A stretch of DNA of 64,000 nt. Source: Escherichia phage AV109. Under the pieces are notes generated by a model, which worked only from the letters and a program-made list of their open reading frames with translations, had not been told where the DNA came from and ran no database searches. Of this stretch, positions 3,986 to 62,961 are shown in pieces. How positions within the stretch are numbered: the stretch's first letter is position 1; each line of letters opens with the position of its first letter. Position numbers and translations under genes: made by a program. The stretch lies in the sequence record OR352939.1. One strand, written 5' to 3'.

Positions 3986-4014
3986 ATAATATCATGTTTG
4001 AAGCATATGTAAAC
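3986..4014 (-). promoter_or_regulatory. T4 early-type promoter (minus strand: GTTTAC -35, 17-bp spacer, TATTAT -10) upstream of motA
   Basis: Plus-strand gtaaac at 4009-4014 and ataata at 3986-3991; same module recurs before many genes in the window. Confidence 0.5.
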
Positions 4015-4024
4015 TGTTTTGTGA

Positions 4025-4055
4025 GAAAAATGCACAAAAGGGAGCCGAAGCTCCC
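4025..4055 (-). terminator. Intrinsic terminator-like hairpin after gene 52 (GGGAGC-UUCG-GCUCCC then U-rich tract on minus RNA)
   Basis: Inverted repeat gggagc/gctccc 4040-4055 with cgaa loop (UUCG on minus strand), followed on minus strand by UUUUGUGCAUUUUUC. Confidence 0.45.
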
Positions 4056-4131
4056 TAATCATGTTTGTCCAACCAATACAGCCAAATCACTAGTGCAGCT
4101 ATTGCGCCGAGAAATCCTAAGGCTATGGCAC

Positions 4132-5457
4132 TCAAAGTGCCTCCAAGTCTTTAGTGTACTCTGTCACAACATCAGTAGACTTCCAATACTCATTTTCTTC
4201 TTTCTTAGCTTTAGCTTCTTCTGCTAGTTTACGTGCTTCATCGGAAGTGATATGGAAGATGTTAAGACCTACCAGTTTATCGACATGTTCTTTATACATT
4301 TCGATTTGTGCGAGCTCTTCAGTCAAAGCTTTACGAGTCTTGCCCTGAATCACAATTTCGCCGTTGATAACTTTTTTGATGAAGTGTGCCTTAGCAAAAG
4401 CCAGTTTAAATGCTTTTTCAGATTCAAGGATTTTGTTGTCAATACGTTTCTGAACGTAAGTCTTACGGACTTCAACAAAATCTTTGATTAAGTCCACTAC
4501 GTTATCGTAGACAGCTAATTTACCCTTTTCATTAATCACTGTGATGTTTTGTGAACGACGTTCGATGAGACTAAAATCTTTCATGATTTTTTCATGACGT
4601 AGCTCTTCATCATCAGGAAGCGAGTACTCTTTACGGAACTTCACCTTAAACCCAAAGCCGTGTTCACCGCAATCATCTTCCCATGAGATTAGACCTTTGT
4701 CTTCCAACGGGTCAAGAACCTTACTCACATACGTTTCACGGTCGAATTTATATGGGATTTCAGTTATCTGCATTTGAGTGCGAGATGTGAACTTATATGT
4801 TCCGTGAATCTCATAACGCCCATCAACTTCATGTACTTCACCACGGAATTCCGGGAATTCAACTTTTGGCTTAGTGACATTTTTACCTTGAAGAGCTTGT
4901 AATACAGCCTTTTTGACTGATTTAAAACTATGAGGCAGAATATTTGTTGCGTAACCGGTTGCAATACCAGAGACACCATTCAAAAGAACTGTCGGAATAA
5001 TAGGAAGATAGAATTTTGGTGGAATGTGTTCTTTATCTTCATGAGCTGGAGCATATTCAGTATCTTTATATACGTTATAGAAATTTTTACTTACACGAGC
5101 AAAAATATAACGAGATGCTGCAGCTTTTTGGACTGTTCGAGAACCAAAGTTGCCTTGACCATCTAACAGTGGATAGTTGTTGTTCCATGTGTTAGCCATC
5201 AATGCACCTGCATCTTGTGCAGAAGATTCACCATGGTGATAACCTAAATCGGCAACACCACCCGCAATTGACGCAAGTTTATGAAATTTTTCTTTATTAC
5301 CACGAGCCAAATCTAACGCACGATGGACCACAAAACGTTGAACCGGCTTAAATCCATCAATCATGTTTGGGATTGCACGGTTTTCAACGGTGTACATCGC
5401 ATATGCTAAGGCTTCGTTATCAATAATACTTTTTAGATTACGAGAATTCAATTGCAT
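4132..5457 (-). CDS. 52: DNA topoisomerase II medium subunit gp52 (GyrA-like)
   Basis: 441 aa; near-identical to recalled T4 gp52 (MQLN.R.LKSIIDNEALAYAMYTVENRAIPNMIDGFKPVQRF, DGQGNFGSRTVQKAAASRYIFARV). Confidence 0.93.
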   Translation of the reverse strand: MQLNSRNLKSIIDNEALAYAMYTVENRAIPNMIDGFKPVQRFVVHRALDLARGNKEKFHKLASIAGGVADLGYHHGESSAQDAGALMANTWNNNYPLLDGQGNFGSRTVQKAAASRYIFARVSKNFYNVYKDTEYAPAHEDKEHIPPKFYLPIIPTVLLNGVSGIATGYATNILPHSFKSVKKAVLQALQGKNVTKPKVEFPEFRGEVHEVDGRYEIHGTYKFTSRTQMQITEIPYKFDRETYVSKVLDPLEDKGLISWEDDCGEHGFGFKVKFRKEYSLPDDEELRHEKIMKDFSLIERRSQNITVINEKGKLAVYDNVVDLIKDFVEVRKTYVQKRIDNKILESEKAFKLAFAKAHFIKKVINGEIVIQGKTRKALTEELAQIEMYKEHVDKLVGLNIFHITSDEARKLAEEAKAKKEENEYWKSTDVVTEYTKDLEAL

Positions 5458-5469
5458 ATTTTCACCATA

Positions 5470-5602
5470 TTAATGAACGAATAACCATTATAACATCTGA
5501 AATGAAAAGCACTACTTGGATTAGTCCAAACGTCACACCGTAGTACAGAACCGTAAGCAACAACAAGAGCCCGAAGGCTCCTGCTAAGATTTTCTTAATC
5601 AT
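5470..5602 (-). CDS. Small hydrophobic protein (44 aa), ac/stp region
   Basis: ATG 5602; translation MIKKILAGAFGLLLLLTVLYYGVTFGLIQVVLFISDVIMVIRSL; below the 60-aa track cutoff; a UUCG hairpin lies inside it, so uncertain. Confidence 0.25.
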
Positions 5603-5748
5603 TACTCGCCTTTTAACACGTTAAGAAGAGCTAAGACCGCTAAGGTACCTTGTGATACGGCCTGTTGAAATACTGTTGTTTCGCCTGTAACTAAAGTGTT
5701 AACGAATAAAAACGACCAACACAACAATGCAATAATCCATGCTACCAT
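5603..5748 (-). CDS. Small membrane protein (48 aa), ac/stp region
   Basis: ATG 5748 preceded by GAGG RBS; translation MVAWIIALLCWSFLFVNTLVTGETTVFQQAVSQGTLAVLALLNVLKGE. Confidence 0.35.
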
Positions 5749-7094: not shown

Positions 7095-7106
7095 ACTTTT
7101 ATGAAA

Positions 7107-7664
7107 TTAAAGATGAAGATACCACCCGTTGTAGTTGCTCTTGCGGACGATTTTCTTTAGGTCTTCATGGTCTCCCACGAACTTTATAGAATAAGAGAAG
7201 ACGTCAGGTGAGGTTTCTTTGACATCTAATATAATAATGCAATCTGCGACTCGATGGTTCAAGAAGGGCCCTATATTGATTCCATTACCACCAGGATAAT
7301 CACCACTGTATCCTGTGGTAACCGAAATCCATTTAGAATCTATCTGGTGCGTCTTGACTTCGACACGCAACCCGCAGTATTTAGGATGAGCTAACACGTC
7401 CCATGCATACGTGTACGGGTCTTCTACGTCTTCATTACCTTTATTAACATATCCATCTAGCCAATTTGCTACTACATACTCTGCAAAGACTGCAACCTTA
7501 CAACGTCGAACAACGTCTTCTTTTATTTGACCTGGATCTTGTTTCAACGAGTACCGAGCAGTGTCAGCAATCTTCACCTTCATTTCACTAGTCAAAAACT
7601 CATTCGACAGGATAAATGTCGGAAGATTCTTCAGCCTCAACAGCCCCAAGTTCGTCTTTACCAT
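7107..7664 (-). CDS. denB: Endonuclease IV DenB-like (position and size as T4 denB)
   Basis: Start placed at internal Met (MVKTNLGLL) with AGAGGT RBS, giving 185 aa as in T4; the track ORF 7107..7727 would overlap the upstream gene; assignment mainly by synteny between ndd and rIIB. Confidence 0.5.
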   Translation of the reverse strand: MVKTNLGLLRLKNLPTFILSNEFLTSEMKVKIADTARYSLKQDPGQIKEDVVRRCKVAVFAEYVVANWLDGYVNKGNEDVEDPYTYAWDVLAHPKYCGLRVEVKTHQIDSKWISVTTGYSGDYPGGNGINIGPFLNHRVADCIIILDVKETSPDVFSYSIKFVGDHEDLKKIVRKSNYNGWYLHL

Positions 7665-7886
7665 AGATACCTCTGATGTGTAGTTCGCCAAAATAAATGC
7701 GGTCACCTTCTTCAAGATATTCTGCATCTACAGGCGGAATTTCAATAACAACTTCGTCGCATTCTAACCAGCCGTAGTGTGCATCGCCCGGGTGTTTTAC
7801 CAATTTAGCACAATAAACTGATTTACACTTATGATGACCACGAAGATTAGCAATTTTGGATTCTGATACGTCAAATGGATGAATCA
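7600..7886 (-). CDS. Hypothetical protein
   Basis: Start at ATG 7886 (MIHPFDV) preceded by AGGGGTAATT RBS and located just after the rIIB terminator hairpin; the track start at 7923 would lie inside the terminator. Confidence 0.4.
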
Positions 7887-7900
7887 TAATTACCCCTAAA

Positions 7901-7921
7901 GAAAAAAGGGGACCGAAGTCC
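7901..7921 (-). terminator. Intrinsic terminator after rIIB (GGAC-UUCG-GUCC + U6)
   Basis: Hairpin 7910-7921 followed on minus strand by CCUUUUUUCUUU. Confidence 0.45.
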
Positions 7922-7928
7922 ACAATTA

Positions 7929-8855
7929 TTATTCTGCAAATAATTCAGTAACGTCTGAAATTACTTCGTAACGACAAGTACGCATCTTAGCATCGCCATA
8001 GTCAACTGGGATAGATACAACATCACGTGGATGAACTTTAACCTTAACAACTTTATCTGAGCTAGAACCGAAGTAACGAATATATGATTTAGCACAAACG
8101 TGGAGACCGCGAGAACAGGTTTGAGTATCATCGTCGTTAACTCGAGTACGAGGCATTGAAACAACTTTACCAGGCGAGTTATCAAATGTGCCGCTATAGC
8201 AATCTAAATAGTCTTTACGAACTACTTTCCATGCATAGAAATGCCCGTCTTCAGTGATTTCAATATCATTTGCAACCAAGAAGTCGAATAAACGTTGTAC
8301 AGCTTTTTCGCTTGGGTTTTCTAACAGGTTTTCAAGGAACGGCAGATAGAATTTAAAGTCTTCGCCTTTTTCCATGGAATCAATAATACGATTAACCAGT
8401 CCTGAACGAATCTCTATACCTTGATAAAATAAACTACCACCTTCAATAGTAACATTACCGTCAACAAACTTAGTAATAGCTTTCTTGATGTTAATAAGTT
8501 CGACAGCTTTACTAAGGTTTCCTGCGACCAAATTAGCTTTAATTTCTTCAAAATTTGCATGACTTGATGGGGTCGCATTGTATGCTACGCGTCCTTCAAT
8601 GATTGAAATAAATTTAGATGACGCATTCCATACGATTTCTGGACGATGACCTGTAATAATAGGTTCATCATTTTTCGGAACTTCTTCAACTTTAGAAGTC
8701 TCATCTTCGTCTTTAAAATTCTTAACAATCTTACGAAGAGTGTCAGTGGAAATATTGAAGTAATCAGCAATTTCCCGACGAGTCCATTGACCTGATTCAA
8801 CCAGTCTGTAAGCTTCTAACTGTTCTTCTTTAGACAAGCATTTAATATTGTACAT
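7929..8855 (-). CDS. rIIB: rIIB lysis-inhibition/membrane integrity protein
   Basis: 308 aa; size and position next to rIIA as T4 rIIB (312 aa); N-terminus MYNIKCLSKEEQLEAYRL consistent. Confidence 0.8.
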   Translation of the reverse strand: MYNIKCLSKEEQLEAYRLVESGQWTRREIADYFNISTDTLRKIVKNFKDEDETSKVEEVPKNDEPIITGHRPEIVWNASSKFISIIEGRVAYNATPSSHANFEEIKANLVAGNLSKAVELINIKKAITKFVDGNVTIEGGSLFYQGIEIRSGLVNRIIDSMEKGEDFKFYLPFLENLLENPSEKAVQRLFDFLVANDIEITEDGHFYAWKVVRKDYLDCYSGTFDNSPGKVVSMPRTRVNDDDTQTCSRGLHVCAKSYIRYFGSSSDKVVKVKVHPRDVVSIPVDYGDAKMRTCRYEVISDVTELFAE

Positions 8856-8864
8856 AATGTTTCC

Positions 8865-11078
8865 TTATTTGGCTGCTTCCACAGCCTTCATGAATTTAAC
8901 GATTTGAGCGACCTGTTCTTTTGAAAGAGTACCACGTCGTCCCATGTATTCTGACACAATATGATAATTGGTTTCGAATTCAATAACCATTTTATCATCA
9001 TTATCGTAAGCATTATCTTTAAGCTTATCGAAAATTTTAGCACACAATTCTAACTTCTTATTCAGGTCTGTATTAGTAGCACCTGCGAATCGATTCCATC
9101 CCCAACGATTATTTACTGTTGAGAGTTTTGCAAAATCTTTACTGATTTCTTTGTTTTTAGAGCTAAAATACTTACTAAGGAAGTTAAGCTCTTCATTACG
9201 AGTAATATGATTCAAATAAGGTTGAGCTCTACGACTTGGTGATACATACTCATCATAATCCGCTTTATCAATTAGCGTAATATAGTCATTAATTGATTTT
9301 TCGAACAAGCATTCTACTTCACCAAGTTTACGAACTTTCTTAGCAATCTGTGGACGAACTACAGTGAACTCTTTAATACCCGACAAATCAGCAATACGGG
9401 TCAAGAAATTGGAGTCATAGTTCAACCAACCTTTATCTGCGTCAAGACATTCAGCATTAGAACGATTACGAACTATAGCATAACCTTGGATTTCATCTGC
9501 TTCACTTGCCGGAATAAAGAGATCTTCTGATACCCAAACATCGTTTTCATTCTTAAAGAATCGATGAGCACTTGGCGATTTAGGACGAGGCTCATTAGTC
9601 CGTTTCTTGACTTCAATCCATGGCTTAACGATTTGTAAAAGCTCTGAAGTCTTGTACATGTTAATGTTGTCGCCATCAAAGATAACTTTAAGGCGTTCCA
9701 GAAGTTTCATTGCATCTTCGTCTGTAGGGTCAACGAATAGTATGCTTTTACCAAAACCGCGCGGAACTTTACCAGTTAATTTAACATCGTCTTTAGACAT
9801 TTCAATTGAATTAAGAGCTCGCATTAATGGAACGCGTCCCTTAACGTCGTCAATAACAATTTCAACATTTTTAATGTTAATGCCAATCAGACTGTTAATT
9901 GAAATAGTCGCCGATGAGCTACCACTTTCACGAATACGACGAAGACGAGGGGATTCAACTATATCGTATACTACGCCAAGATTACACCACTCAGGCCCCA
10001 TTTTAAAACGTTTGTACAACTCAGAATAAGTTAGTTGTTCTTTAGAGTATTTCAGTGATTCAATATTAGACCCGGCCTTTTCCATGTATTTACGAGCGGT
10101 ATAGCCAAGAGAATCAATTTCACGGAACACATGACGTGGGTATTTACAATCAATCCATTTCTTAGAATCTTCAGCGAACAATTTAGCATCGATTTCTGCA
10201 ACGCGTTTATGGATATTTGCTACTGTACGTTTATCAAATGACAATGCTTCACGAGACGGGGCTACATCTAGTTCACCCATAGGGAATTTAATATAAGCTG
10301 TAGTGCATCGCGTCATCATCCATGTTTGTTCTTTAATAACACTTCCGATTGGATATACAATACCACCATAAACAGCCATGATATTACCACGTTCACCCCA
10401 TGGAGCTTCCTTGGCCAAATATACATCGTCAAATTCTGGGAAGTATTTAATATCTTTAACACCACGAACTTCTGCAATATCACCTAGAGGACGCATAACA
10501 TAAGCAATTTCGGATGCGAACTTTTCAAAATCTTCTGGGTTAACAGGCACAACTACTTCAACGCCGGTCCGGTCATCAGGACCCATCTTATCTACGAAGG
10601 TTGGCTTAATCTGTGGACCCGTGTCATCTTGGTAGATTACGTAACCACGAACTTCACCGTTGTGATAAGACGTAAGGTTAAACGTATCGGTATATGCTAA
10701 TGGAGCTTTAGAGCCGAGTCCGAATCCACCAATGAAATCGTTACTCGATGTTTTAGTTGAAGCAAAATATGAGTTATAGATTCCTGGCTCTTTGTCATTA
10801 CCTCGAATGGTGAAATCACTCATACCCGGTCCAAAATCACGAACTACAAAACGTGGGTCTAAACGACCTGGAGCCTGAACAATAAACTTATCAGTGCAAC
10901 CATTAAGAATTTGCCCATCAATACAGTTTGTGATTAATTCACGTACACAAGCCAATTCTTTGTTTGTATAAAGGTCATTAGACAAAATCTTATAAACTTT
11001 GCTATTGCCTTGAATAGTAAATGCTGTGCTCTTACCGCCTGAACCAATAATCGTTTCTTTAGCCGTTTCGATAATCAT
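8865..11078 (-). CDS. rIIA: rIIA protein (GHKL-type ATPase domain at N-terminus)
   Basis: 737 aa; N-terminal ATPase-like motif (ELITNCIDGQ, DFGPGMS); adjacent to rIIB as in T4. Confidence 0.8.
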   Translation of the reverse strand: MIIETAKETIIGSGGKSTAFTIQGNSKVYKILSNDLYTNKELACVRELITNCIDGQILNGCTDKFIVQAPGRLDPRFVVRDFGPGMSDFTIRGNDKEPGIYNSYFASTKTSSNDFIGGFGLGSKAPLAYTDTFNLTSYHNGEVRGYVIYQDDTGPQIKPTFVDKMGPDDRTGVEVVVPVNPEDFEKFASEIAYVMRPLGDIAEVRGVKDIKYFPEFDDVYLAKEAPWGERGNIMAVYGGIVYPIGSVIKEQTWMMTRCTTAYIKFPMGELDVAPSREALSFDKRTVANIHKRVAEIDAKLFAEDSKKWIDCKYPRHVFREIDSLGYTARKYMEKAGSNIESLKYSKEQLTYSELYKRFKMGPEWCNLGVVYDIVESPRLRRIRESGSSSATISINSLIGINIKNVEIVIDDVKGRVPLMRALNSIEMSKDDVKLTGKVPRGFGKSILFVDPTDEDAMKLLERLKVIFDGDNINMYKTSELLQIVKPWIEVKKRTNEPRPKSPSAHRFFKNENDVWVSEDLFIPASEADEIQGYAIVRNRSNAECLDADKGWLNYDSNFLTRIADLSGIKEFTVVRPQIAKKVRKLGEVECLFEKSINDYITLIDKADYDEYVSPSRRAQPYLNHITRNEELNFLSKYFSSKNKEISKDFAKLSTVNNRWGWNRFAGATNTDLNKKLELCAKIFDKLKDNAYDNDDKMVIEFETNYHIVSEYMGRRGTLSKEQVAQIVKFMKAVEAAK

Positions 11079-11090
11079 GTTTTTCTCTCA

Positions 11091-11291
11091 TCACAAGTTA
11101 CGTTTAAAAATTTCTGCCACTTCGAGAAGTTCTTCTTTAGTAGCTGTGTCGGTTTGTATTTTATATCGAATTTCCTTAAAGCGTTCTTTAAAGGCTTCAG
11201 CTGATTCGATATCAAAAAATCTTTGGATAAGCCGGAATTCCCGGAGCACTGCTTTATCAAAAAGTTCCAAGTCCACGTTATATGTTCTCAT
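11091..11291 (-). CDS. Hypothetical protein (rIIA.1 position)
   Basis: Start placed at ATG 11291 (MRTYNV); the track start at 11321 is a GTG lying inside a 16-bp inverted repeat. Confidence 0.35.
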   Translation of the reverse strand: MRTYNVDLELFDKAVLREFRLIQRFFDIESAEAFKERFKEIRYKIQTDTATKEELLEVAEIFKRNL

Positions 11292-11311
11292 AATATTCTC
11301 TTCAGTAGATT

Positions 11312-11372
11312 CCTGAGGCACTATTACTAAAGACCATATAATCTATCATCTTATGTGTAATAGTGCCTCAGG
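11312..11372. repeat. 16-bp perfect inverted repeat (cctgaggcactattac / gtaatagtgcctcagg) with 29-nt loop
   Basis: Arms at 11312-11327 and 11357-11372 are exact reverse complements; intergenic between glycosyltransferase gene and rIIA.1. Confidence 0.7.
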
Positions 11373-11383
11373 CGATTCAGGAT

Positions 11384-12484
11384 TTACGCTGTGAAGATTT
11401 TATCCCACATCGCAACAACTGCATCTCGATTATACTTCTTCCATACTGCTTCAGCACGTTTAACTCGAGCTTCGTATGTGTCAGTGAATTCTAATACAGC
11501 TTTTGTGTAAAGCGCAACTACTTCTTTCTTAGGAGTAGAGGAATCAATTTCTACACGCACAGTATCTGGGTCGTATTCAAATGTCGCATGAGGATAATCC
11601 TTAAAAACTAACTGGATTACAGGGACACCTTTAGAGATGGCTTCAATAGAACTATTCTCTACCGTACCTGTGTCAGGACACGTATTAATAAGTGCTTTAG
11701 CTGTTTTAAGACGTTCCATGATTTCACTATGTGGAGCATCAATAATAACAGGATACTTAGCCGGTGGTGCCCATTTACTAGGACAGTATCCTGCACCATT
11801 TTCGCCTAGTGCTTTAATCGCTTCAAGAGCAACATCAGTGCGACGCATTTTAGTGTCATAACGTTGGGCACTAATAATCAAATCAGTTGCTGGGAGAACT
11901 TCTGGCTTTTCGGTCAAACAAATAACCGGGTAGTCATCATGTTCAAATAATGGATTTTCACGCCAGTAATCATAATCAATGCTATCAGTAAGAGCTGAAG
12001 TCATATGGCAATATTTACGTTCAAATTCACGGAATGCTTTAGTAGGAGCATAGCTCTTACCACCGTATTTGTGGGTAAGAATAGTTTGTTTCCAAATTTC
12101 TACAATACCGCGAGATACAGGCTCAAATGGAGTTGCCATAAAATTTCTATGAACACTGGATAAACCGGCATCTTTAATTGCGTTAACAGTTAGTTTAGTC
12201 GGTTCCATAGTAACAACAAAATCGTATTCATGGATGCCGGCTAGTTCAACAATCTTACGAGCCATAGTATAACTCATACCTAGACTGAATTTAGTCAGAT
12301 GACCAACAGGATGATGATTAACTTTCCAGTCACCAAACGTGTCATTATCAAAGCCGATATAATCAATATCAGCACCGATGGACACAAGATATTTCAACAC
12401 ATTTAAATGTACTGCTTCAAGGCCACCTTGTACACGGTCAGGATTAAATGGGACTGCACGAGATGGGATAAACATAACTTTCAT
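11384..12484 (-). CDS. GT-B fold glycosyltransferase (GT4-like); candidate DNA hydroxymethylcytosine glycosyltransferase
   Basis: 366 aa; C-terminal nucleotide-sugar binding signature resembling GT4 E-x7-E (TGTVENSSIEAISKGVPVIQ); not present at this position in T4. Confidence 0.5.
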   Translation of the reverse strand: MKVMFIPSRAVPFNPDRVQGGLEAVHLNVLKYLVSIGADIDYIGFDNDTFGDWKVNHHPVGHLTKFSLGMSYTMARKIVELAGIHEYDFVVTMEPTKLTVNAIKDAGLSSVHRNFMATPFEPVSRGIVEIWKQTILTHKYGGKSYAPTKAFREFERKYCHMTSALTDSIDYDYWRENPLFEHDDYPVICLTEKPEVLPATDLIISAQRYDTKMRRTDVALEAIKALGENGAGYCPSKWAPPAKYPVIIDAPHSEIMERLKTAKALINTCPDTGTVENSSIEAISKGVPVIQLVFKDYPHATFEYDPDTVRVEIDSSTPKKEVVALYTKAVLEFTDTYEARVKRAEAVWKKYNRDAVVAMWDKIFTA

Positions 12485-12510
12485 AATTAAGCCTTATTAA
12501 AATTAAAATG

Positions 12511-12528
12511 AAGCTCCCGAAGGAGCTT
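12511..12528 (-). other. UUCG-tetraloop hairpin (AAGCUCC-UUCG-GGAGCUU) between HNH endonuclease gene and glycosyltransferase gene
   Basis: Inverted repeat with cgaa loop on plus strand; overlaps stop codon of the HNH gene. Confidence 0.4.
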
Positions 12529-13339
12529 AGGACATCCAACACATTTTATAACCTTTGCAGGTTCTGTTAGGATTATTTAATGCTTTCAATATATTAGAAG
12601 ACCCTATATCTAAATACTCCCTTAATTCATAAAGATAGTTAAAATCAATAGTTTCACCTGTTTTTACACTTGTGATTCTTATAGGCCTTCTTTCATATTT
12701 AGATTTATACAACTCTCTAGTCTTAGCTTTAGTTTCTTCTGACCTAGGAGTGTATGGTTTAAATCCTTTTGTTTTAAATGTTTCCATTCTTGATTTAGTT
12801 ATTTTATCCTGGTGTTCTTTTGTTTTTACAGGTGCTTTTCGCCCATTCTCCCAAGATAACTTGTTGGCCTGTATTATTTTATCTATTGCTTCTTGCGTAT
12901 GAGTTTTACCATAAAATGGATTTAATTCGCCTATACGTTGTGAAGCAATATGTGACATTAATTCTCTTGTTGCTTTAGTATGTTTTTTACCTTTAAATGG
13001 ATTGCCATTTTTAGCAATCCATTCTTTCATAAATCTAGAGTGCTCTTTAGAGAATTCTTGTTTAAGCCAATCATAATCTCTAGAATTTCTAGCTCCCATG
13101 TAAAAAGCTCTAATAGCCATAAGCATAGAACGGTTCTTATGAATTTTATAAAGCAATAAATGGGCGATAAAATGCTCTCTAGGGGTCATTTTAACTAGAT
13201 TTGATTTAGCATTACTCCCACCCATAGATTTAGGCAAAATATGGTGAGTTTCAGTATAATTAGGAATAGTGCTGCGGTTTTTAGCCGCAGCGATAAGTTT
13301 ATCATAAATTTTACGATAATTCATTATCCTAGCATCCAA
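12527..13339 (-). CDS. HNH homing endonuclease with NUMOD3-like repeats (Mob-like)
   Basis: 270 aa; HHILPKSMGG...N core and repeated NPFYGK.HT / NPFKGKKHT modules; occupies the mobA slot beside gene 39. Confidence 0.65.
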   Translation of the reverse strand: MDARIMNYRKIYDKLIAAAKNRSTIPNYTETHHILPKSMGGSNAKSNLVKMTPREHFIAHLLLYKIHKNRSMLMAIRAFYMGARNSRDYDWLKQEFSKEHSRFMKEWIAKNGNPFKGKKHTKATRELMSHIASQRIGELNPFYGKTHTQEAIDKIIQANKLSWENGRKAPVKTKEHQDKITKSRMETFKTKGFKPYTPRSEETKAKTRELYKSKYERRPIRITSVKTGETIDFNYLYELREYLDIGSSNILKALNNPNRTCKGYKMCWMS

Positions 13340-15162
13340 TCTTTACGGAGTTCAGGGTCGTTACCCATGAGCATTTCAAATAGTTCTTTCCAATTTTCAG
13401 GAAGTTTAACTACGTCGTACACAGGGTTTTGAATCATTTCTTTATATTCATCCCGCTGAAGTGAGCCCAATCCCTTGATGTATCGAATACTATGCTTAGG
13501 CAGTGTATCTTTAACTTCTTCATACTCAGCTACAGTATAAAACCATTTTTGAGTTTTGCCAATTTGTGCAATAATTACAGGCGTTTTAACAAAGCGAATA
13601 CGTCCTTGTTCAAACAATTCAGGCCAATTACTAAAGAAAGCAAGCAAAGCCGGATAAATACTTCCAAGGCCGTCATGATCGGCATCGGTCATAATTGCAA
13701 TATTACGGTAGTTCGTATTCTCTGCCTTTTCACCAAGAATAAGACCCGTGATAGCACAGATATCAAAGAGCTCTTTGTTCTTCATCATATCGGCATATGA
13801 CATACCCCAGCTATTCATCACCTTACCACGTAATGGGAATCCGCCGTGTAGTTCACGGTCACGAACATCAATGAGATAACCAATTGCCGAATCACCTTCT
13901 GTTAAAAACAATGTCGTATCTGCATCTTTACCACATTGGTTAGCTTTAATATGCTTATGAACCTTAGCTTTAGTTGCCTTTTTAGCTGCTTTAGTTTCTG
14001 CAGCCTTTTCTGCTGCCAATTTACGAGCTAATGCGGCTTCAATTATAGGCATTAAAACTGCTTCAGAATTCAAAATATTTTTTGCCAATTTTTTTGTATC
14101 TAATTTAATATGCGTCCGAATTTCGCCATAAGGACTTGTTAAACGCTCTTTGGTTTGGGAATCAAAACGAAGGTTCTTCATTCCACGAACGAACATTAAG
14201 AGAGTGAGACATTCCTTGATTCGCGCTTTAGTCACGTCGATTTTATATTTGCGTTTAATAGCCGGAATTAATTCTTCGCTAATGTCGTCCATCACACATT
14301 CAATGTGATGACCACCGTTTTTGGTATGGATGTTATTCACATAAGTTAAATGACGGAAGCCATCTGGTGACCGTCCAATGGCAATAGAGCATCCGTCTTG
14401 TTCTTGAATGATGGTCTCTTCATCAAATTGTTTAGCAAACTTCTTAAAGTTACCTTGAATCTTTTTGCCATTAAATTTAAATTCAATACCAGGATAAACG
14501 ACCGCCAATGTTTGGAGCCGGTCTATAGTAATATCTTGGTATATTTTTTCAAATTGATTCATTTCAAAATGTGAGAAATCAGGAATAAACTCGACCTTAG
14601 TACCGTTGTTTTTAGACGGCTTAGATTTCCAAGAAATATTATCAGCGTTATTAGAACAATTAACGGTCAATTCATTTTTACCATCTGAAGTAGTGCCAAC
14701 AAAAGAGACAGAAAAAATATTTGTTAATGAAGAACCGACACCGTTTTGTCCACCCGTAACACGTTCTTTGTCGTCACCAAAGTTGCCACCGGCTTTTGTA
14801 CGTGTCCACGCCGCAACTGGTCCTGGAATTTCTTCTCCTTCAGGAGTAATAACTGTTTCTTGAGGAATACCTCGACCATTATCTTCAACAGTCACTTTAT
14901 TAGAATTTAAATCAATACTAACGGAAATTTTATTAGCATATTTGAAATTGGTTCGAATAGCTTCGTCTACTGAGTTGTCAATAATTTCATCAATTAATTT
15001 GAGAACACCTGCAACATATTTAACCTTTTTAAATTCACCGAATAGGAAACGTTCTTGTTCTTCATTGGCAACACTTCCAATATACATGCCAGGACGCTTC
15101 AAACAATGCTCTTTATCAGATAGCATTTCAATTTTATTATCAATCATTAGATTTTCTCTCAA
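13324..15162 (-). CDS. 39: DNA topoisomerase II large subunit gp39 (GyrB-like), unsplit 39+60
   Basis: 612 aa continuous ORF with GyrB-type ATPase N-terminus (HCLKRPGMYIGS, DNGRGIP) and TOPRIM region; no separate gene 60 or bypass gap. Confidence 0.9.
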   Translation of the reverse strand: MRENLMIDNKIEMLSDKEHCLKRPGMYIGSVANEEQERFLFGEFKKVKYVAGVLKLIDEIIDNSVDEAIRTNFKYANKISVSIDLNSNKVTVEDNGRGIPQETVITPEGEEIPGPVAAWTRTKAGGNFGDDKERVTGGQNGVGSSLTNIFSVSFVGTTSDGKNELTVNCSNNADNISWKSKPSKNNGTKVEFIPDFSHFEMNQFEKIYQDITIDRLQTLAVVYPGIEFKFNGKKIQGNFKKFAKQFDEETIIQEQDGCSIAIGRSPDGFRHLTYVNNIHTKNGGHHIECVMDDISEELIPAIKRKYKIDVTKARIKECLTLLMFVRGMKNLRFDSQTKERLTSPYGEIRTHIKLDTKKLAKNILNSEAVLMPIIEAALARKLAAEKAAETKAAKKATKAKVHKHIKANQCGKDADTTLFLTEGDSAIGYLIDVRDRELHGGFPLRGKVMNSWGMSYADMMKNKELFDICAITGLILGEKAENTNYRNIAIMTDADHDGLGSIYPALLAFFSNWPELFEQGRIRFVKTPVIIAQIGKTQKWFYTVAEYEEVKDTLPKHSIRYIKGLGSLQRDEYKEMIQNPVYDVVKLPENWKELFEMLMGNDPELRKDWMLG

Positions 15163-51409: not shown

Positions 51410-51692
51410 TAGCCTGACGAGTAGTAACCCACTGGATTTTAATTAACTTGTCATTATATGGTTGTCTTAGAATATCCCGAGATTTCTTAATAGCATATTC
51501 GTAAGCTTCGAAGTTGTTTTGAATTGCTGCTTCTTGAGCATGAGCATAAAGACGGTTTAGTTCAAAACGATTCTTTTTAAGAATCTTTTCGGATTTTTTA
51601 CGTGCTTCAGCTTCATTTTTCTTTTGGATTTCTTGTAGCATTTTAGCTACTGCATCTTCTGCTTCTTTATTTTCAATAATCTCGGTAGTCAT
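51369..51692 (-). CDS. Hypothetical protein
   Basis: 107-aa ORF, Lys/Glu-rich. Confidence 0.4.
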   Translation of the reverse strand: MTTEIIENKEAEDAVAKMLQEIQKKNEAEARKKSEKILKKNRFELNRLYAHAQEAAIQNNFEAYEYAIKKSRDILRQPYNDKLIKIQWVTTRQAIEDIINGASSNKV

Positions 51693-51693
51693 A

Positions 51694-51909
51694 TTATCTC
51701 ATTAAATTAAAATAAAAACGTCCGTCCTCTTCAATACAGAACTCATACTCAACCGGAGTCCCATTTATCGAAAATAACACGTCATGTGGGTTCAAAGGGT
51801 CGATGTCAAAATTAATTTTAAATTCACGACCCAACAGTTTTACCAAATAAGGGATTGCTTCGTCAAAAGGTTCTTCTAAGTAGTTAGAGATGTCAATTGT
51901 CATCCTCAT
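51694..51909 (-). CDS. Hypothetical protein
   Basis: Start uncertain (MRMTIDIS); the track ORF 51694..51987 overlaps the 3' end of gene 55. Confidence 0.3.
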
Positions 51910-52450
51910 ATAAAAAATCCAAACTAGGCGAATCGCTAACAACTTCCTTCTTTTCAGCCCCAGGAGCTTTATAAGCGGATTCTTCATAATGCGTCATTTT
52001 ATCGTAGATGTCTTGAATAAACGTTTCATCTACCAACGCTACCATATCATCGTCATGACTGTCGTAGACATTATGAACGAAGTAACTATATTTCTTTGCA
52101 ACTTCCTTACGTTCTTTTTTGATACGTTGGACAAAAGCATTAAAACAAGCTCGAGTTATGTATGCATGTGGGTTATTGTACTTAGTTTCGTCGAAATTAT
52201 GAAGTCCCTTAATAGAGGCTTCAATCCCATCTGCAATCATCTCCTGCTTCCAAGACTGGGTATATCCTGAAAAGTTGAAACGTTTGGACAGGCCTTCGGC
52301 GATAAGCATAATTGCTAAACCGATGGTATCATTCTGACGAATAATTTTGTTTGGGTCTTTATTATTTAAGAGCTCCTTTTTCCACTCGATTATAGCGGCG
52401 AGAAGCTCTTTATTATTCACATAGTTATTTTTAGGTTTTTGTTCAGTCAT
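51893..52450 (-). CDS. 55: Late sigma factor gp55
   Basis: Start at Met7 ([17 protein letters not shown]) with GAGGT RBS gives 185 aa as T4 gp55; near-identical in recalled blocks ([55 protein letters not shown]). Confidence 0.9.
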
Positions 52451-55569: not shown

Positions 55570-57383
55570 TGGTGTTTAACCCTATGCATTATTTCTTTAT
55601 TTTTACCGAGATTAAATCCGCGTTCGTTCGGATTTCCCAAATAACCGCATGTTCTTCTTATGGTGTTCATCTTTTTAGGATCAGTTTCTCCACAGATAGA
55701 ACAAACAAATCCGTTTTCAGTAGGAGTCATTTCATGGGTACTTCCACATGTAAAACATTTATCTACTGGCATATTAACACCAAAATAATCTAAATGCTGT
55801 GCAGCATAATCCCACACGGCCTCAAGACCTTTTAAGTTATTTTTCATATCAGGAAGTTCAACATAAGAAATGTGACCACCTGTCGCAATGAAATGATACG
55901 GCGCTTCACGAGAAATCTTTTCAAACGGAGTAATATTTTCTTCTACTGAAACGTGGAAACTGTTAGTGTACCAGCCTTTATCGGTAACATCTTTTACACT
56001 TCCATATTTTTCTGTATCAAGTTTACAGAAGCGATAACAAAGGTTTTCAGCAGGAGTAGAATACAAACTAAAAGCAAAACCAGTTCTTTCAGTCCACTGT
56101 TTAAGATGAGCATTCATTTTAGTTAAAATTTCTTGTCCAATATCACGACCGACAAGAATATTCAATTCATGAATACCGATGTATCCTAAAGACACTGAAC
56201 TTCTACCGTTTTTAAATAGCTCAATTATATCGTCATCAGGTTTAAGACGAACCCCGAATGCACCTTCTTGGTAAAGAATAGGAGCAACAGTCGCTTTAAC
56301 TCCTTTTAAGGAACTAATTCTACACATCAAAGCTTCAAAACACAGGTCCATTCGTTCATTGAATAATTCAACAAATTTCTGTTCATTGAACTGTGTTCCA
56401 ATATAAGAATCTAATGCGATACGAGGAAGATTCAGTGTTACAACGCCGAGATTATTACGACCGTCAAGAATTTCATTTCCAGTTGAATCTTTCCATACGC
56501 TCAAGAAACTACGGCAACCCATCGGAGAAACTGGAACTGAAGAACCGGTAATAGCTTTATTATTCTTAACTGAAATAATGTCAGGATACATTCTTTTGCT
56601 TGCACATTCTAACGCAAGTTGTTTAATATCATAGTTTGGATCATCTTTATAAAGATTAACACCTTCTTCAAAAAACATAACAAGCTTAGGGAAAATAGGA
56701 GTTATTCCATCACGTCCAAGGCCTTTAATGCGGTTTTTAAGAATTGCCTTCTGAATCATTCGTTCAGTCCAGTCAGTTCCCGTACCAAATGTAATTGTCA
56801 CAAAAGGCGTTTGTCCGTTTGAACTAAAGAGAGTGTTTACTTCATATTCATAAGCTTGGAATGCATCGTATACGTCTTTTTCTGTTTTAGATTGAGCATA
56901 ATTCAGAATGTCTGGTATTTGCCATTTTTCTGCATCTTCAACATGTTTAGCGTATGTGCGTTTAACATAAGGAGAAAGAACTTTATCGACATTCGCAAAT
57001 GTAGTTCCGCCATACTGGTGTGAAGCAACTTGTGCAGTAATTTGTGCCATAATTGCAGTAGCAACGCCAATAGATTTAGGCGTTTCAATTTGAGCATTGC
57101 CTAATTTAAATCCATTCTCAAGCATTCCTTTTAAATCTACTAAACAGCAATTAGTAAAAGGCAATGATATACTATAATCTAAATCGTGAAAATGAATTAA
57201 TCCGACATTATGAGCATTTACAATATGGCTCGGAAGAATACTACAAGCGATATGTTTAGAAACAATACCGGCCATTAAATCTCTTTTTGTTGGAAAGACA
57301 CGAGAATCTTTGTTGGCATTTTCGGTATTTAATTCTTTATCTTTATTTGAAATAAAATTTAAAACATCTTTCTCTAAAGACAT
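55566..57383 (-). CDS. nrdD: Anaerobic ribonucleoside-triphosphate reductase NrdD, uninterrupted
   Basis: 605 aa continuous ORF; C-terminal glycyl-radical motif RRTCGYLG and zinc ribbon CFTCGSTHE...CSICG. Confidence 0.9.
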   Translation of the reverse strand: MSLEKDVLNFISNKDKELNTENANKDSRVFPTKRDLMAGIVSKHIACSILPSHIVNAHNVGLIHFHDLDYSISLPFTNCCLVDLKGMLENGFKLGNAQIETPKSIGVATAIMAQITAQVASHQYGGTTFANVDKVLSPYVKRTYAKHVEDAEKWQIPDILNYAQSKTEKDVYDAFQAYEYEVNTLFSSNGQTPFVTITFGTGTDWTERMIQKAILKNRIKGLGRDGITPIFPKLVMFFEEGVNLYKDDPNYDIKQLALECASKRMYPDIISVKNNKAITGSSVPVSPMGCRSFLSVWKDSTGNEILDGRNNLGVVTLNLPRIALDSYIGTQFNEQKFVELFNERMDLCFEALMCRISSLKGVKATVAPILYQEGAFGVRLKPDDDIIELFKNGRSSVSLGYIGIHELNILVGRDIGQEILTKMNAHLKQWTERTGFAFSLYSTPAENLCYRFCKLDTEKYGSVKDVTDKGWYTNSFHVSVEENITPFEKISREAPYHFIATGGHISYVELPDMKNNLKGLEAVWDYAAQHLDYFGVNMPVDKCFTCGSTHEMTPTENGFVCSICGETDPKKMNTIRRTCGYLGNPNERGFNLGKNKEIMHRVKHQ

Positions 57384-58195
57384 AATTCTAATTTATCCTT
57401 TTGAAATTCTTCGTCTAAATATGGGTTCCAACCCATTTTAAACCTTTTGATGAAATTATCAATTCTAAATTTCGGTAAATTTAACTCCGCAAAAATAGAT
57501 GATTTACTTTTAAAATCTGGACCTAAATAATCATATAAAATTTCTGCGTATTTTAACCATAATATATAAGTACCAGATTTAATTGCGTTCGGAGTTTTCC
57601 AAGGTTTTACACCATACATCGGATTTCCACTTCCTTTATGCCTGATAGAAGATGAAATTCCAATTTTAATTTTAGCTTCCTTTGTATGCGAAAATCCACG
57701 ATGCGGATTTTCTTTCCAGTATTTTTTAGCAGCTTCTGATATTTTCTTTCTGGCTAAATTAGTATGATGCTTTCCATAAAATCCATGATTTTTGCCTTTA
57801 TTACGATTTCTTTTAATCATGGTTATTGATTGCTTTTCTCTAGTTTCTTTAGAAGGAGAAATACCATATGTCGTAAATTTGCCATCAGCATATGCTAAAT
57901 TAAAATACTCTTTATTCCATACATCTTTTTCTATATTCTTTTGAAATTCAGCTTCAATGCTAGTTATTTGTTCATCTCCGACTAATTGAAAATATAATAT
58001 TTCAACTTTCGGCGTTTCTTTCAATAAGGCTTTTTGAAATTCGGAAGATGACGAAGACGAATAATAAAATTTACCATTTTTATCAATAATATTCGTTCCA
58101 TCAAAAGTGCAATTGGTTTTACTTCCAATGTAATAATATGGTGGGGTTTTAGCATTAATTCTATTAATAAATGATAGTTTATATACTACATTCAT
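57374..58195 (-). CDS. GIY-YIG-like homing endonuclease (Seg-like)
   Basis: 273 aa; N-terminal VVYKLSFINRINAKTPPYYYIGSK; paralogue of 45493..46392; inserted between nrdD and gene 49. Confidence 0.5.
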   Translation of the reverse strand: MNVVYKLSFINRINAKTPPYYYIGSKTNCTFDGTNIIDKNGKFYYSSSSSSEFQKALLKETPKVEILYFQLVGDEQITSIEAEFQKNIEKDVWNKEYFNLAYADGKFTTYGISPSKETREKQSITMIKRNRNKGKNHGFYGKHHTNLARKKISEAAKKYWKENPHRGFSHTKEAKIKIGISSSIRHKGSGNPMYGVKPWKTPNAIKSGTYILWLKYAEILYDYLGPDFKSKSSIFAELNLPKFRIDNFIKRFKMGWNPYLDEEFQKDKLELCL

Positions 58196-61262: not shown

Positions 61263-61290
61263 AATATTTTCCTCTCGTTAAGATAGAAAG

Positions 61291-61319
61291 ATTATACTCC
61301 AACCATCCTTGGTTGTACA
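61291..61319 (-). promoter_or_regulatory. Early promoter (TGTACA -35, N17, TATAAT -10)
   Basis: attatactccaaccatccttggttgtaca, same module as 18681..18709. Confidence 0.45.
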
Positions 61320-62315
61320 TCATTCCTTAAGAAGTTTTACTACCTGAATAAGATTAGCTCGTTCTGTTTTATTTTTACCGTTTAAGCCTGCTAATCGTGA
61401 GATTTCATCGTCGGTCTGTTGAATAGTTACATTAAGTTCGTTAATCAAAGCTTCAAAGTATTTGATTTGCTCAGCATGTTTTGATTCAAATTTCTGAACC
61501 GGAATAACGTCTTGGTTTAGTTCATCAATAAGGTCTTTAAGAGCATCTTCTTGGTTGATATCATATTCAACTTCTTTTATTTCTTCAACAAGCTCGTCTT
61601 TATATCTAACGTCTTTTAGTCCTGGGATCGGGCCTAAAATCTCTTCTTTAAGAGTACAAACATATCCAATACGGTATCCAATGCCGTCTCGCTTGATATC
61701 AACTTCGTCGATAAATCCACAATGTTTAAAACCAGAGCCGATTAGGTCAAAATATCCTTGACGTCGTCCTTCAAACGTTACACGAACTACTAAGATGGTT
61801 TTGCCACCAACCTTTTGAAGCTCACATTTATAAAAGTCTGTTGAACCTGAATAACGTGGATGAGTTTTAAAGTTCATCTGACGATCTAGGCCCATTTGTA
61901 AACGTGCTGTTACGGCCAGAAAACGTGTTTGGTTCTCGTTAAGATGAGCAACAATCCATTTCAAAGGCATTTTACCATGTTCACGACCGAACAAATCAGT
62001 ACGTCCTAAATTACGCAGGATATTGTTAGAGTTAATCATCGACAGAACGTTAAGTTTATTCAGCGCGCTGAAGATTCCATCGGCCATTGATTTTCCGTAA
62101 CCTTTACATGCTTTAATAAGCGCTCGCGGTAGATTAGTATAGATTTCAGACGGCATATGAAAATCAAATTTACTAGTCAGTAATTGATGAACTTGGATAG
62201 CAATTTGTTCATAATTAAGTGCTCTGCGATCGTTATGGTCTTTAAACCACACTTTAATCTGTGAAGCACATAAACCGTTAATTTCATGTTTTACCGCATC
62301 AGATGTAATGCTCAT
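61320..62315 (-). CDS. Hypothetical protein with C-terminal coiled coil
   Basis: 331-aa ORF. Confidence 0.45.
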   Translation of the reverse strand: MSITSDAVKHEINGLCASQIKVWFKDHNDRRALNYEQIAIQVHQLLTSKFDFHMPSEIYTNLPRALIKACKGYGKSMADGIFSALNKLNVLSMINSNNILRNLGRTDLFGREHGKMPLKWIVAHLNENQTRFLAVTARLQMGLDRQMNFKTHPRYSGSTDFYKCELQKVGGKTILVVRVTFEGRRQGYFDLIGSGFKHCGFIDEVDIKRDGIGYRIGYVCTLKEEILGPIPGLKDVRYKDELVEEIKEVEYDINQEDALKDLIDELNQDVIPVQKFESKHAEQIKYFEALINELNVTIQQTDDEISRLAGLNGKNKTERANLIQVVKLLKE

Positions 62316-62377
62316 AACTATTTCCTCAGATTGAATTGGAATTCAAAACCATTATAACCCGTCCTTGGGTAAAGCGT

Positions 62378-62905
62378 TTATGCGTGAACCGTCTTTAAAC
62401 GTTCTTCAAATTTCCGAAGAGTACTAATACGTTCTGCTTTCTGTTTTGTATAGTTTGCAATACGTTCTGAAGTGAGAGCGTATCGTTCGTTTACTGATTC
62501 TTTCATGAAGTCAGGGATTTCACGAGAAGCTTTAATTTCATCAAACTTATCGAGTACTGCCTGGTCTTCAGCGATTAAATTTTCGTACATCTCGATATCT
62601 TTCTTGATAAACTCGATATCTTCCTGGGTTACTTTGGATAAACGAGATGCTTTATCCTTTTTGTACTGCTCGTTAGTTTCACGAGACCAGAATAATGTAC
62701 GTTTTTTGTTAGTGTTTTTGTAGACTTCCACAATTCCAACTGAATCGATGATAACAATCCAATTCCAGCGAGATTTGAAAATCTGACCTCCGTCCACGGT
62801 AATCTCGTTACCATAAGCAATGTCATTAAAGAACTTACTTTGTGCTTCAGATTTAAATTTACCGTCGTTATAATTTACCAGGTTGAAAATATCTTTAGCG
62901 TTCAT
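62378..62905 (-). CDS. Hypothetical protein
   Basis: 175-aa ORF; GGAGGT RBS. Confidence 0.45.
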   Translation of the reverse strand: MNAKDIFNLVNYNDGKFKSEAQSKFFNDIAYGNEITVDGGQIFKSRWNWIVIIDSVGIVEVYKNTNKKRTLFWSRETNEQYKKDKASRLSKVTQEDIEFIKKDIEMYENLIAEDQAVLDKFDEIKASREIPDFMKESVNERYALTSERIANYTKQKAERISTLRKFEERLKTVHA

Positions 62906-62931
62906 GTTTTACCTCCAGTAGTTGATAGGTC

Positions 62932-62961
62932 TATAATAACATAACCATAGACCTTGTAAAC
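62932..62961 (-). promoter_or_regulatory. T4 early-type promoter (GTTTAC-N17-TATTAT)
   Basis: tataat 62932-62937 and gtaaac 62956-62961; GATAGGTCTATAATAAC...ATAGACC module. Confidence 0.5.

Follow-up and report, generated by a model that had tools for sequence, protein, structure and literature searches.

Introduction

Immediate-early promoters of T4-type phages let the host RNA polymerase turn on phage genes seconds after infection. Here we describe a family of putative early promoters in 64,000 nucleotides (nt) of Escherichia phage AV109 (sequence record OR352939.1); this entire stretch is called the window, and all coordinates are given in its numbering. In a megablast comparison of window 16000-24000, phage AV114, which is classified in Mosigvirus (the RB69 group), was 99.6% identical, and hundreds of T4-like phages were matched as well. 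Judged by its sequence, the window is from a Mosigvirus, an RB69-like relative of T4. The gene order starts with the holin gene t, asiA, motA, 52, ndd, rIIB, rIIA, 39, cef, motB, dexA and dda, continues with srd, modA, modB, soc, 56, 61, sp, imm, dmd, 41, uvsX, 43 and regA, and ends with 62, 44, 45, 46, 47, 55, nrdD and the nrdC cluster. The minus strand carries nearly all of these genes, and the window corresponds to the classical early/middle region found in T4-type genomes.

The module family

A first-pass annotation of this DNA had proposed about 18 early-promoter modules on the minus strand, and a search of the window bears that figure out. An iterated two-block position weight matrix found 19 modules on the minus strand and none on the plus strand, each scoring at least 28.9 bits and far above the top score on 20 random sequences (17.7 bits). 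Four weaker or atypical copies, at 53200, 6292, 18681 and 52480, were found besides, and one strong copy (1487-1516, upstream of asiA) falls outside the span that the annotation had covered. The exact pattern GTTTAC-N16-19-TATTAT has four matches, all on the minus strand, where 0.08 are expected. A blind rule, which allows at most one mismatch in GTTTAC, requires N13-15 and TGnTAnnnT after it and ignores all sequence downstream of the -10 element, gave 21 matches on the minus strand versus 1 on the plus strand (about 1.9 per strand expected in Markov-random sequence). Every module lies directly upstream of a co-oriented minus-strand open reading frame (ORF) with a Shine-Dalgarno (SD) sequence, at a fixed distance from the SD and the ATG. 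Only four modules contain the 11-mer AGACCTATCAA exactly, and with up to two mismatches allowed the word by itself shows no enrichment (28 found, 20.9 expected); it is a consensus rather than a fixed box.

Two blocks hold no early-type module, namely window 30400-51000 (the 20-kb replication block, 41 through 47) and 7100-17100 (rIIB-rIIA-39), and the same gaps are present in RB69. The genes in both blocks presumably depend on read-through and on MotA-type middle promoters.

Anatomy and predicted start site

Across the 19 strong modules, an A-rich tract lies 4-8 nt upstream of the -35 element (-40 to -44; A in 14/19 and 13/19). The six positions of GTTTAC are matched in 17, 19, 15, 19, 19 and 19 modules, so that positions 2, 4, 5 and 6 are invariant. 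Eight modules have a 17-nt spacer before the -10 element, and the other 11 an 18-nt one. An extended -10 motif, TGn, is present (T-15 and G-14, 17/19 each), and T-12, A-11 and T-7 of the -10 hexamer are found in all 19. The annotation had given the -10 as TAtTAT; this is indeed the commonest single form (TATTAT 5, TACTAT 4, TATAGT 3, TATAAT 2, TAAGAT 2, TATGAT 2), although it makes up only a plurality of TAYWAT-like hexamers. Downstream follow a discriminator, A-G-W-C-C-T (A-6 14/19, C-3 15/19, C-2 10/19, T-1 18/19), an A seven nt past the -10 in all 19, and then T+2 (14/19) and C+3 (15/19). The leader AUCAAC... is A/C-rich and almost devoid of G, and it runs into a purine-rich SD (GAGG/GGAG) at +11 to +15. 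The ATG lies at +19 to +24 in 16 modules, at +29 in asiA, at +34 in motA and at about +72 in srd.

The transcription start is most likely the invariant A, since nucleotide 0 of the published RB69 predictions coincides with that A, give or take 1-2 nt, in every matched module. A second reason is that the -10 element stands at -12 to -7 in most of 30 T4 middle promoters whose starts were identified experimentally (T-12 26/30, A-11 27/30, T-7 25/30; Hinton, 2010, Table 1). With the predicted start at this A, the AGACCT half of AGACCTATCAA would be an untranscribed discriminator; the annotation had called the whole 11-mer an initial transcribed sequence, a description that would hold for its ATCAA half.

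Correspondence with known early promoters

For RB69, Nolan et al. (2006, Virol J 3:30) listed 58 predicted early promoters, which they had aligned with the consensus from T4 and numbered so that nucleotide 0 is the start. Eighteen of our 19 modules are orthologs of these predictions, with 93-100% identity over about 120 nt. The modules share with the RB69 and T4 set the -35 GTTTAC, the TGn, the -10 TAnnAT and the A-rich tract at -40 to -44, as well as the C-rich -3 to -1 noted for RB69, RB49 and 44RR, and they stand before orthologous early genes. They differ in that the module at 51073 (P51073; the others are named likewise) has no RB69 counterpart, and P61291, P53200 and P18681 are chimeras of two RB69 promoters. 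Furthermore, the published model ends at the start site, so the consensus at +2 to +8 (UCAAC..) lies outside it. Counterpart promoters exist in T4 and JS98 for motB.2, nrdC.8, modB, mrh.2, srd, 55.6 and others. Set against the T4 early-promoter consensus, the modules agree in GTTTAC, TGn, TAnnAT and the UP-like tract, and T4 early promoters have been described as UP/-35/TGn/-10 promoters with "additional regions of consensus" (Hinton, 2010). The kind of module and nearly every member were thus already known, having been predicted in RB69 in 2006.

Chance pairs of sigma70-like hexamers in AT-rich DNA, or membership in the MotA-dependent middle or gp55 late class, could be invoked instead, the more so as generic hexamer matches are as many as in shuffled sequence and the site at 52480 is by sequence the ortholog of the T4 middle promoter P55. 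Such an origin is refuted for the 19 strong modules by the weight matrix, the blind rule and the orthology to RB69 Pe sites, and has next to no chance overall: the strand bias is 19:0, the scores are far above random, and the SD and ATG follow at a fixed distance. None of the 19 has a MotA box (TGCTT at -30), GTTTAC standing at -35 instead, whereas mapped T4 middle promoters carry GCTT at about -30 and lack the start-region block. The basic reading of the annotation, a minus-strand family of early (sigma70-type) promoters, is supported by sequence and orthology.

Under this reading, the unmodified host sigma70 RNA polymerase would bind the A/T-rich UP-like tract, GTTTAC, TGn and the -10 TAnnAT, and would start transcription at the A seven nt downstream of the -10. 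The expected product is a G-poor leader of 20-24 nt, AUCAAC..., whose last elements are a GAGG/GGAG ribosome-binding site and the start codon (ATG) of one of the early genes (asiA, motA, cef, motB.2, srd, modA, modB, sp, imm and others).

Conservation of the start region

The annotation had noted that conservation extends beyond the -10 element. This is real and not circular, for it persists in the set chosen blind to that region (C-3 14/21, T-1 17/21, A+1 17/21, C+3 11/21). Summed over -6 to +8, the information is 4.5 bits in the blind set of the window, 6.9 bits in 31 RB69 promoters outside the window's region (about 2.5 bits of it at +2 to +8), 3.4 bits in T4 early and 5.2 bits in JS98 early promoters (both blind), 14.6 bits in RB49 early promoters, and 0.8 bits in the 30 mapped T4 middle promoters. 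T4 early and middle promoters differ at T+2 (14/26 vs 7/30), C+3 (13/26 vs 6/30), A+4 (17/26 vs 9/30) and T+7 (17/26 vs 8/30), with nominal, uncorrected p values of 0.007-0.03. A consensus (C)C-T/C-A-U-C-A/G-A-A-C is found in four genera, Tequatrovirus, Dhakavirus, Mosigvirus and Krischvirus. Since mapped middle promoters lack the block, it characterises the early class and is no general requirement of the sigma70 polymerase in infected cells.

This distribution, kept in the early promoters of four genera and missing from 30 mapped T4 middle promoters with the same sigma70 -10, lends some appeal to the idea that A-G-W-C-C-T-A-T-C-A-A-C is a phage-specific cis-element, be it a shut-off operator, a determinant for Alt-modified polymerase, or a signal in the 5' leader for mRNA processing, stability or translation. 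How early promoters are shut off has been called unknown (Hinton, 2010; Uzan and Miller, 2010). The annotation had likewise suggested that the modules may also be recognised by a regulatory factor or act as a signal for RNA processing, for which we found no supporting evidence: the block is never commoner apart from promoters than on the other strand, TATCAAC occurring outside the modules eight times per strand, in coding sequence, with no excess on the transcribed strand. Early mRNAs are inactivated by the RegB/S1 nuclease, which cleaves the SD at GGAG, and the leaders look like RegB targets by their sequence, with GGAG in 10 of 19 and GAGGA in most others, each followed by an A-rich stretch. 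RegB needs GGA and an A-rich sequence 3' of it "but not 5'" context, in a single-stranded site of 11 nt in all; the block at +1 to +8, which lies 5' of GGAG, is therefore not part of its site. The block would also be transcribed only in part.

Strong phage promoters used by the E. coli polymerase (T7 A1, lambda PL, T5 N25) resemble the modules in combining near-consensus hexamers with extra elements and in starting at an A after a pyrimidine. The T7 A1 transcript begins AUCGAG and that of lambda PL AUCAGC, starts that point to optimisation for the polymerase and so away from a phage-specific element. Unlike the modules, they are single cases, not 50-60 copies per genome that share a leader and a fixed-distance SD. 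T4 early promoters have been compared with such strong phage promoters for strength (Hinton, 2010). With part of the identity also accounted for by paralogy of the cassettes (see below), a phage-specific cis-element is improbable. Its more pointed forms are even harder to credit, namely that the block serves selective early shut-off minutes after infection, or that together with promoter-spanning hairpins it restricts immediate-early genes to transcripts from their own promoters. Nothing points to a dedicated phage factor acting on the block, which is a conjecture of low probability.

Inverted repeats and stem-loops

The local inverted repeats around the -10 that the annotation had described were recovered by a repeat search. 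Repeats flank or overlap the -10 at P62933 (AGGTCTAT/ATAGACCT, 62927-62934/62947-62954, 8 nt, 100%), P7065 (TAGGACTA/TAGTCCTA, 7058-7065/7074-7081, 8 nt, 100%), P17144 (GGTCTAT/ATAGACC, 17139-17145/17152-17158, 7 nt, 100%), P6553 (GTAGGATTA/TAGTCCTAC, 6545-6553/6562-6570, 89%), P28592 (GGACTA/TAGTCC) and P54328 (TAGATGTGTTAA/TTAAACCATCTA, 54317-54328/54331-54342, overlapping the -10). At two modules the spacer is complementary to the SD region instead: at P29905, CTCCAGTAGTTG pairs with the SD-containing CAACTACTGGAG (29878-29896/29914-29932, 19 nt, 89%), and at P17724, TTCTCCTTTGGTT pairs with AACCAGAGGAGAA, which covers the SD (17702-17714/17734-17746, 13 nt, 92%). A spacer-internal hairpin, CCAAggatggTTGG, is present at P61291. 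An Rfam search of the whole window at gathering thresholds matched no family.

Such an arrangement matches the promoter-early stem-loop (PeSL) cassettes described by Arbiol et al. (2010) and extended to T4/PST, with the consensus TTTACW-N17-TAYWAT, by Comeau et al. (2014). Both have an AT-rich tract, an early promoter, a stem-loop often between the -35 and -10 or overlapping the -10, then the SD and the ATG, and in both the breakpoints of indels between close relatives fall within cassettes. In the window, stem-loops are found, though not at every module. Their stems are 7-13 bp and A/T-rich, whereas PeSL stems are GGGG/CCCC; a canonical terminator hairpin accompanies only four modules here, upstream of the -35; and PeSLs have been described for the pairs RB49/phi1, T4/PST and KVP40/nt-1, not for Mosigvirus. 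Attenuation of upstream transcription was proposed by the PeSL authors and shown for one RB49 stem; another trait ascribed to PeSLs is recombination that gives rise to mini-circles. The inverted repeats over the -10 would correspond to PeSL stem-loops, and the hairpins would form in RNA read through from an upstream promoter.

The complementarity was assessed by the duplex energy of each spacer (-34 to -13) with its own downstream region versus those of other promoters. Own-pair duplexes are more stable than cross-pairs in the window (p=5e-5), and for the -10-flanking type also in RB69 (p<=5e-5, also at 31 loci outside the window), T4 (p<=5e-5), JS98 (p=2e-4) and RB49 (p=0.002); control segments upstream of the -35 were non-significant throughout. 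The arms differ between promoters yet stay complementary (AGGACTA/TAGTCCT, GGTCTAT/ATAGACC, AGGGCTA/TAGCCCT, GGATGAT/ATCATCC and GAGAGC/GCTCTC; in T4, among others, GACAAGACTA/TAGTCTTGTC and GATGAGGTA/TACCTCATC), which speaks for a structure formed by the nucleic acid and against a protein site of defined sequence. Across orthologous promoters, the inner sequences of the motB.2 spacer/SD duplex vary between the window, RB69, T4 and JS98, yet its energy stays at -18 to -23 kcal/mol, and the stems of the cef and sp promoters are likewise kept with different sequences. A fixed-register structure for counting covariation was dropped, as the arms lie in different registers across subfamilies, and a search for related loci with the motB.2 protein gave only three contigs, 99% identical and of no use for covariation.

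One function that such repeats could have is translational gating, in which an anti-SD in the spacer (CUCC...) pairs with the module's own SD in transcripts from upstream, so that translation occurs only from the module's own early promoter. At P29905 and P17724, with stems of 13-19 nt, the SD is predicted to be unpaired with probabilities of 0.63 and 0.78, respectively, on the primary transcript, but of only 0.01 on read-through RNA; those two genes would thus be translated mainly from own-promoter transcripts. The preservation of the motB.2 duplex in four phages fits this, as do spacer/SD repeats of 9-14 bp in the regB promoters of RB69 and T4 and the denV promoter of T4. T4 e, soc, 49 and I-TevI offer a precedent, with the promoter within a hairpin whose 3' arm holds the SD, and own transcripts that lack the 5' arm. 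P17724 and P29905 share this geometry by prediction; the T4 cases, however, use late (or middle) promoters and delay translation, whereas here the inner promoter is early and only 2-3 modules are concerned, a strong prediction of occlusion being confined to P29905 and P17724, with P61291 as a possible third. The commoner repeats end at -1, away from the SD, and the test of the spacer against +5 to +28 is weaker than that of the -10-flanking type (RB69 p=0.003; T4, JS98 and RB49 not significant). Across the set, SD burial does not exceed that with shuffled upstream sequence (p=0.28) and is strong at only 2 of 18 modules, so SD occlusion was rejected as a general function of the repeats and kept for the two modules. 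As an account of the promoter-spanning repeats, gating is a tentative possibility that we somewhat doubt.

Canonical terminator-like hairpins stand directly upstream of the -35 at P3986 (GGGAGCttcgGCTCCC+TTTTG), P24709 (AAGGAATCCttcgGGATTCCTT+TTTTT), P30338 (GGAGACttcgGTCTCC) and P51073 (GGAAGCctagtGCTTCC+T7). These four GC-rich hairpins (3990-4060, 24753-24774, 30370-30400 and 51103-51130), three of them with UUCG loops, are followed by T runs, and each with its adjoining promoter is a putative composite terminator-promoter unit.

Recombination at the cassettes

About 13 breaks interrupt the collinearity with RB69, and three of them have both ends inside early-promoter cassettes, which cover only about 2% of the DNA. 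RB69 51003-51998 (nrdC.5) is absent from the window, and P61291 joins the upstream half of RB69 Pe:52042 to the downstream half of Pe:51019; the two cross over within 26 nt that they have in common, ACAACCAAGGATGGTTGGAGTATAAT. RB69 42499-42794 is absent as well, and P53200 is a chimera whose upstream part resembles Pe:42816 and whose spacer, -10 and start resemble Pe:42515. Where RB69 8377-8909 (ORF012 and motB.1) is missing, window 18665-18740 has part of a cassette joined to a complete one. Indel breakpoints within cassettes, as known from PeSLs, are thus found at these three RB69 segments. Two subfamilies share a spacer: aaactcttgagagcagagTATAATgctctc, at four RB69 sites and window 6292 and 53200, and aaccaaggatggttggagTATAATctttct, at RB69 8947, 51019 and 52042 and window 61291 and 18681. 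That cassettes are recombining paralogs explains part of the conservation beyond the polymerase contacts.

It may be asked whether history explains most of it, in that a few ancestral cassettes were spread and homogenised by recombination, as in the "mobile regulatory cassette" of the PeSL literature (Arbiol et al., 2010; Comeau et al., 2014), and the extra bases have no function. The subfamilies that share their entire spacer, the chimeric promoters at indel junctions and the excess of collinearity breaks in cassettes all speak for this. The same start-region consensus, on the other hand, occurs in subfamilies with unrelated spacers and in four genera despite diverged flanks, and orthologous promoters retain the block while their spacers change. 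Selection fits this persistence better than recent copying alone, and a mainly historical origin is rather unlikely.

Weighing of the interpretation

We consider it very probable that the modules are immediate-early promoters (Pe) of an RB69-like T4-type phage, packaged as promoter-plus-leader cassettes of the PeSL kind. The extra conservation we attribute jointly to three causes: contacts and preferences of the E. coli polymerase outside the hexamers (UP/alpha C-terminal domain, TGn, discriminator, pyrimidine at -1 and purine at +1), an optimised start region common to early promoters of the T4 family, and recombination of the cassettes among themselves as paralogs.

Several points weigh against this interpretation. 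A generic sigma70 scan (TTGACA/TATAAT) gave 55 sites against 48.9 expected, with no separation from background; it is uninformative because the DNA is AT-rich, and the signal appears only in the extended model. Own-versus-cross complementarity among the orthologs of four phages did not reach significance (p=0.21), since every combination allows the CUCC/GGAG core to pair. G.U and A.C mismatches in the repeats stand at 7:3 (p=0.17), which does not discriminate RNA from DNA, and to this is added the set-wide null for SD burial given above. The -10-flanking stems have no following U tract and so are unlike canonical intrinsic terminators. Finally, the exact start nucleotide, activity at the onset of infection and the reasons for the extra conservation are matters that we infer, the start site and early timing from homology and promoter rules; our literature search turned up no genome-wide start-site map for T4 or RB69 and no transcriptome of RB69 or AV109.

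Individual modules

All modules described here lie on the minus strand, and each is given with its -35, spacer, -10 and predicted +1. P1487 (1471-1516; GTTTAC 1511-1516, N18, TACTAT 1487-1492, +1 A at 1480) serves asiA (ATG 1452), scores 38.0 bits in the weight matrix and is the ortholog of RB69 Pe:160217. P3986 (3970-4014; GTTTAC, N17, TATTAT, +1 3979) serves motA (ATG 3946, SD GGAG) and corresponds to Pe:162713. P6553 (6537-6582; GTTTAC, N18, TATAGT, +1 6546) precedes the ndd.1 homolog and corresponds to Pe:165283, while P7065 (7049-7094; GTTTAC, N18, TATAGT, +1 7058) precedes the RB69ORF270c homolog and is 100% identical to Pe:165795 over 120 nt. Upstream of cef (ATG 17115) lies P17144 (17128-17173; ATGTAC, N18, TACTAT, +1 17137), ortholog of Pe:6863. 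P17724 (17708-17752; GTTTAC, N17, TATTAT, +1 17717) serves motB.2 (ATG 17697) and is the ortholog of Pe:7443 and of a T4 promoter at 8182, which, by that map position and the naming convention, is probably P8.1, the mutationally dissected T4 early promoter.

For srd, the module is P21851 (21835-21879; GTGTAC, N17, TATTAT, +1 21844; Pe:12088). The srd leader (window 21773-21844) is unusually long, about 71 nt, and carries CGTCCGTAAGA, which also occurs in the srd leaders of T4, JS98 and RB69 and is thus a conserved element of the 5' untranslated region. The two mod genes follow, modA with P22591 (22575-22620; GTGTAC, N18, TACTAT, +1 22584; Pe:12829) and modB with P23229 (23213-23257; GTTTAC, N17, TATGAT, +1 23222; Pe:13466). 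P24709 (24693-24738; GTTTAC, N18, TAAGAT, +1 24702; Pe:14950) precedes an mrh.2-like ORF (ATG 24680). P28592 (28576-28621; GTTTAC, N18, TATAGT, +1 28585), upstream of sp, is 100% identical to Pe:19020; P28903 (28887-28932; GTTTAC, N18, TACTAT, +1 28896; Pe:19331) serves imm, and P29333 (29317-29362; GTTTAC, N18, TACTAT, +1 29326; Pe:19761) imm.1. P29905 (29889-29933; GTTTAC, N17, TATTAT, +1 29898; Pe:20537) is followed by the RB69ORF040c homolog and then dmd, and P30338 (30322-30367; GTTTAC, N18, TATGAT, +1 30331; Pe:20971) by the RB69ORF041c homolog.

P51073 (51057-51102; GTTTAC, N18, TATAAT, +1 51066) precedes an ORF of 267 amino acids (aa) at 50245-51048, which RB69 lacks. This ORF replaces a-gt.2/a-gt.3, carries its own terminator hairpin and early promoter, and matches GIY-YIG weakly, with a score under the Pfam cut-off; a Seg-type homing endonuclease may be its product. 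P54328 (54312-54356; GTTTAC, N17, TAAGAT, +1 54321; Pe:43945) stands before a gp55.6-like ORF (ATG 54299), P61291 (61275-61320; ATGTAC, N18, TATAAT, +1 61284) before the nrdC.3 homolog, and P62933 (62917-62961; GTTTAC, N17, TATTAT, +1 62926), 100% identical to Pe:53683, before nrdC.8 (ATG 62905).

Among the weaker copies, P6292 (6276-6321; TTGTAC..GAGAGCagagTATAATGCTCTC, +1 6285), upstream of ndd, has a GAGAGC/GCTCTC inverted repeat around the -10 and belongs to the cassette subfamily of RB69 Pe:165022, 42515, 72069 and 136687, and P53200 (53184-53229; ATTTAC, N18, TATAAT, +1 53193) precedes the gp55.2 homolog (ATG 53162). The atypical P18681 (18665-18740), an incomplete cassette, GTTTACaaccaaggatggttggag, joined to a complete one, TTGTACatccaaggatggatggagTATAAT, has its predicted +1 at about 18674 and lies upstream of a motB-like ORF (ATG 18650). 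P52480 (52464-52508), upstream of gene 55, lacks GTTTAC; it reads tgaTATAATagacctAtgaa and has the inverted repeat AGATAGGTCT...AGACCTAT. It contains TATAATagacctAtg, in the same sequence context as the mapped T4 middle promoter P55 (T4 start 40180), and is by this likeness the ortholog of P55 and not an early promoter, so that one early-looking start region belongs to a middle promoter.

Start codons of early genes

For five ORFs (stops 16888, 18186, 24453, 52830 and 54117), the annotation had judged the shorter of two possible starts to be the more likely, and the SD sequences favour this in all five. The proximal ATG has GAGG or GGAG 6-9 nt upstream and lies at +23/+24 from the predicted start in the four measured and at +32 in 52830, whereas the longer in-frame starts (ATG 17160, TTG 18719, TTG 24749, ATG 53201 and TTG 54419) have no SD and fall in or upstream of the promoter. 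The long start of cef, ATG 17160, falls within the promoter spacer, right after the -35 hexamer. In AV114, cef is annotated in the long form of 90 aa that starts inside the promoter spacer, and in RB69 and T4 it has 75 aa and 71 aa, respectively, from an SD-preceded ATG.

Other features of the window

Relative to RB69, the window carries three further insertions: 45470-46386, with a 296-aa ORF between genes 45 and rpbA that has no Pfam match; 57324-58191, a segment of 867 bp at the nrdD/49 junction; and 12538-13333, with a homing-endonuclease gene adjoining gene 39. At about 34000-40000, the annotation of relatives gives a phosphoheptose isomerase, a mannose-1-phosphate guanylyltransferase-like protein and an arabinose-5-phosphate isomerase, next to a dCMP hydroxymethylase-like gene; we take this cluster to be the sugar-modification (arabinosyl-hydroxymethylcytosine) gene set of RB69-type phages.

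Significance

The modules as such offer little new biology, since both the early promoters of T4 and PeSL cassettes have been covered in textbooks or papers. Their use lies in fixing the start codons of several small early genes and in marking the boundaries of transcription units in a Mosigvirus genome. Of specialist interest is the start-region consensus, which is specific to early promoters when set against mapped middle promoters and is common to four genera. Of similar interest are the three differences in gene content from RB69 that end within promoter cassettes, which extend the PeSL recombination model to Mosigvirus.

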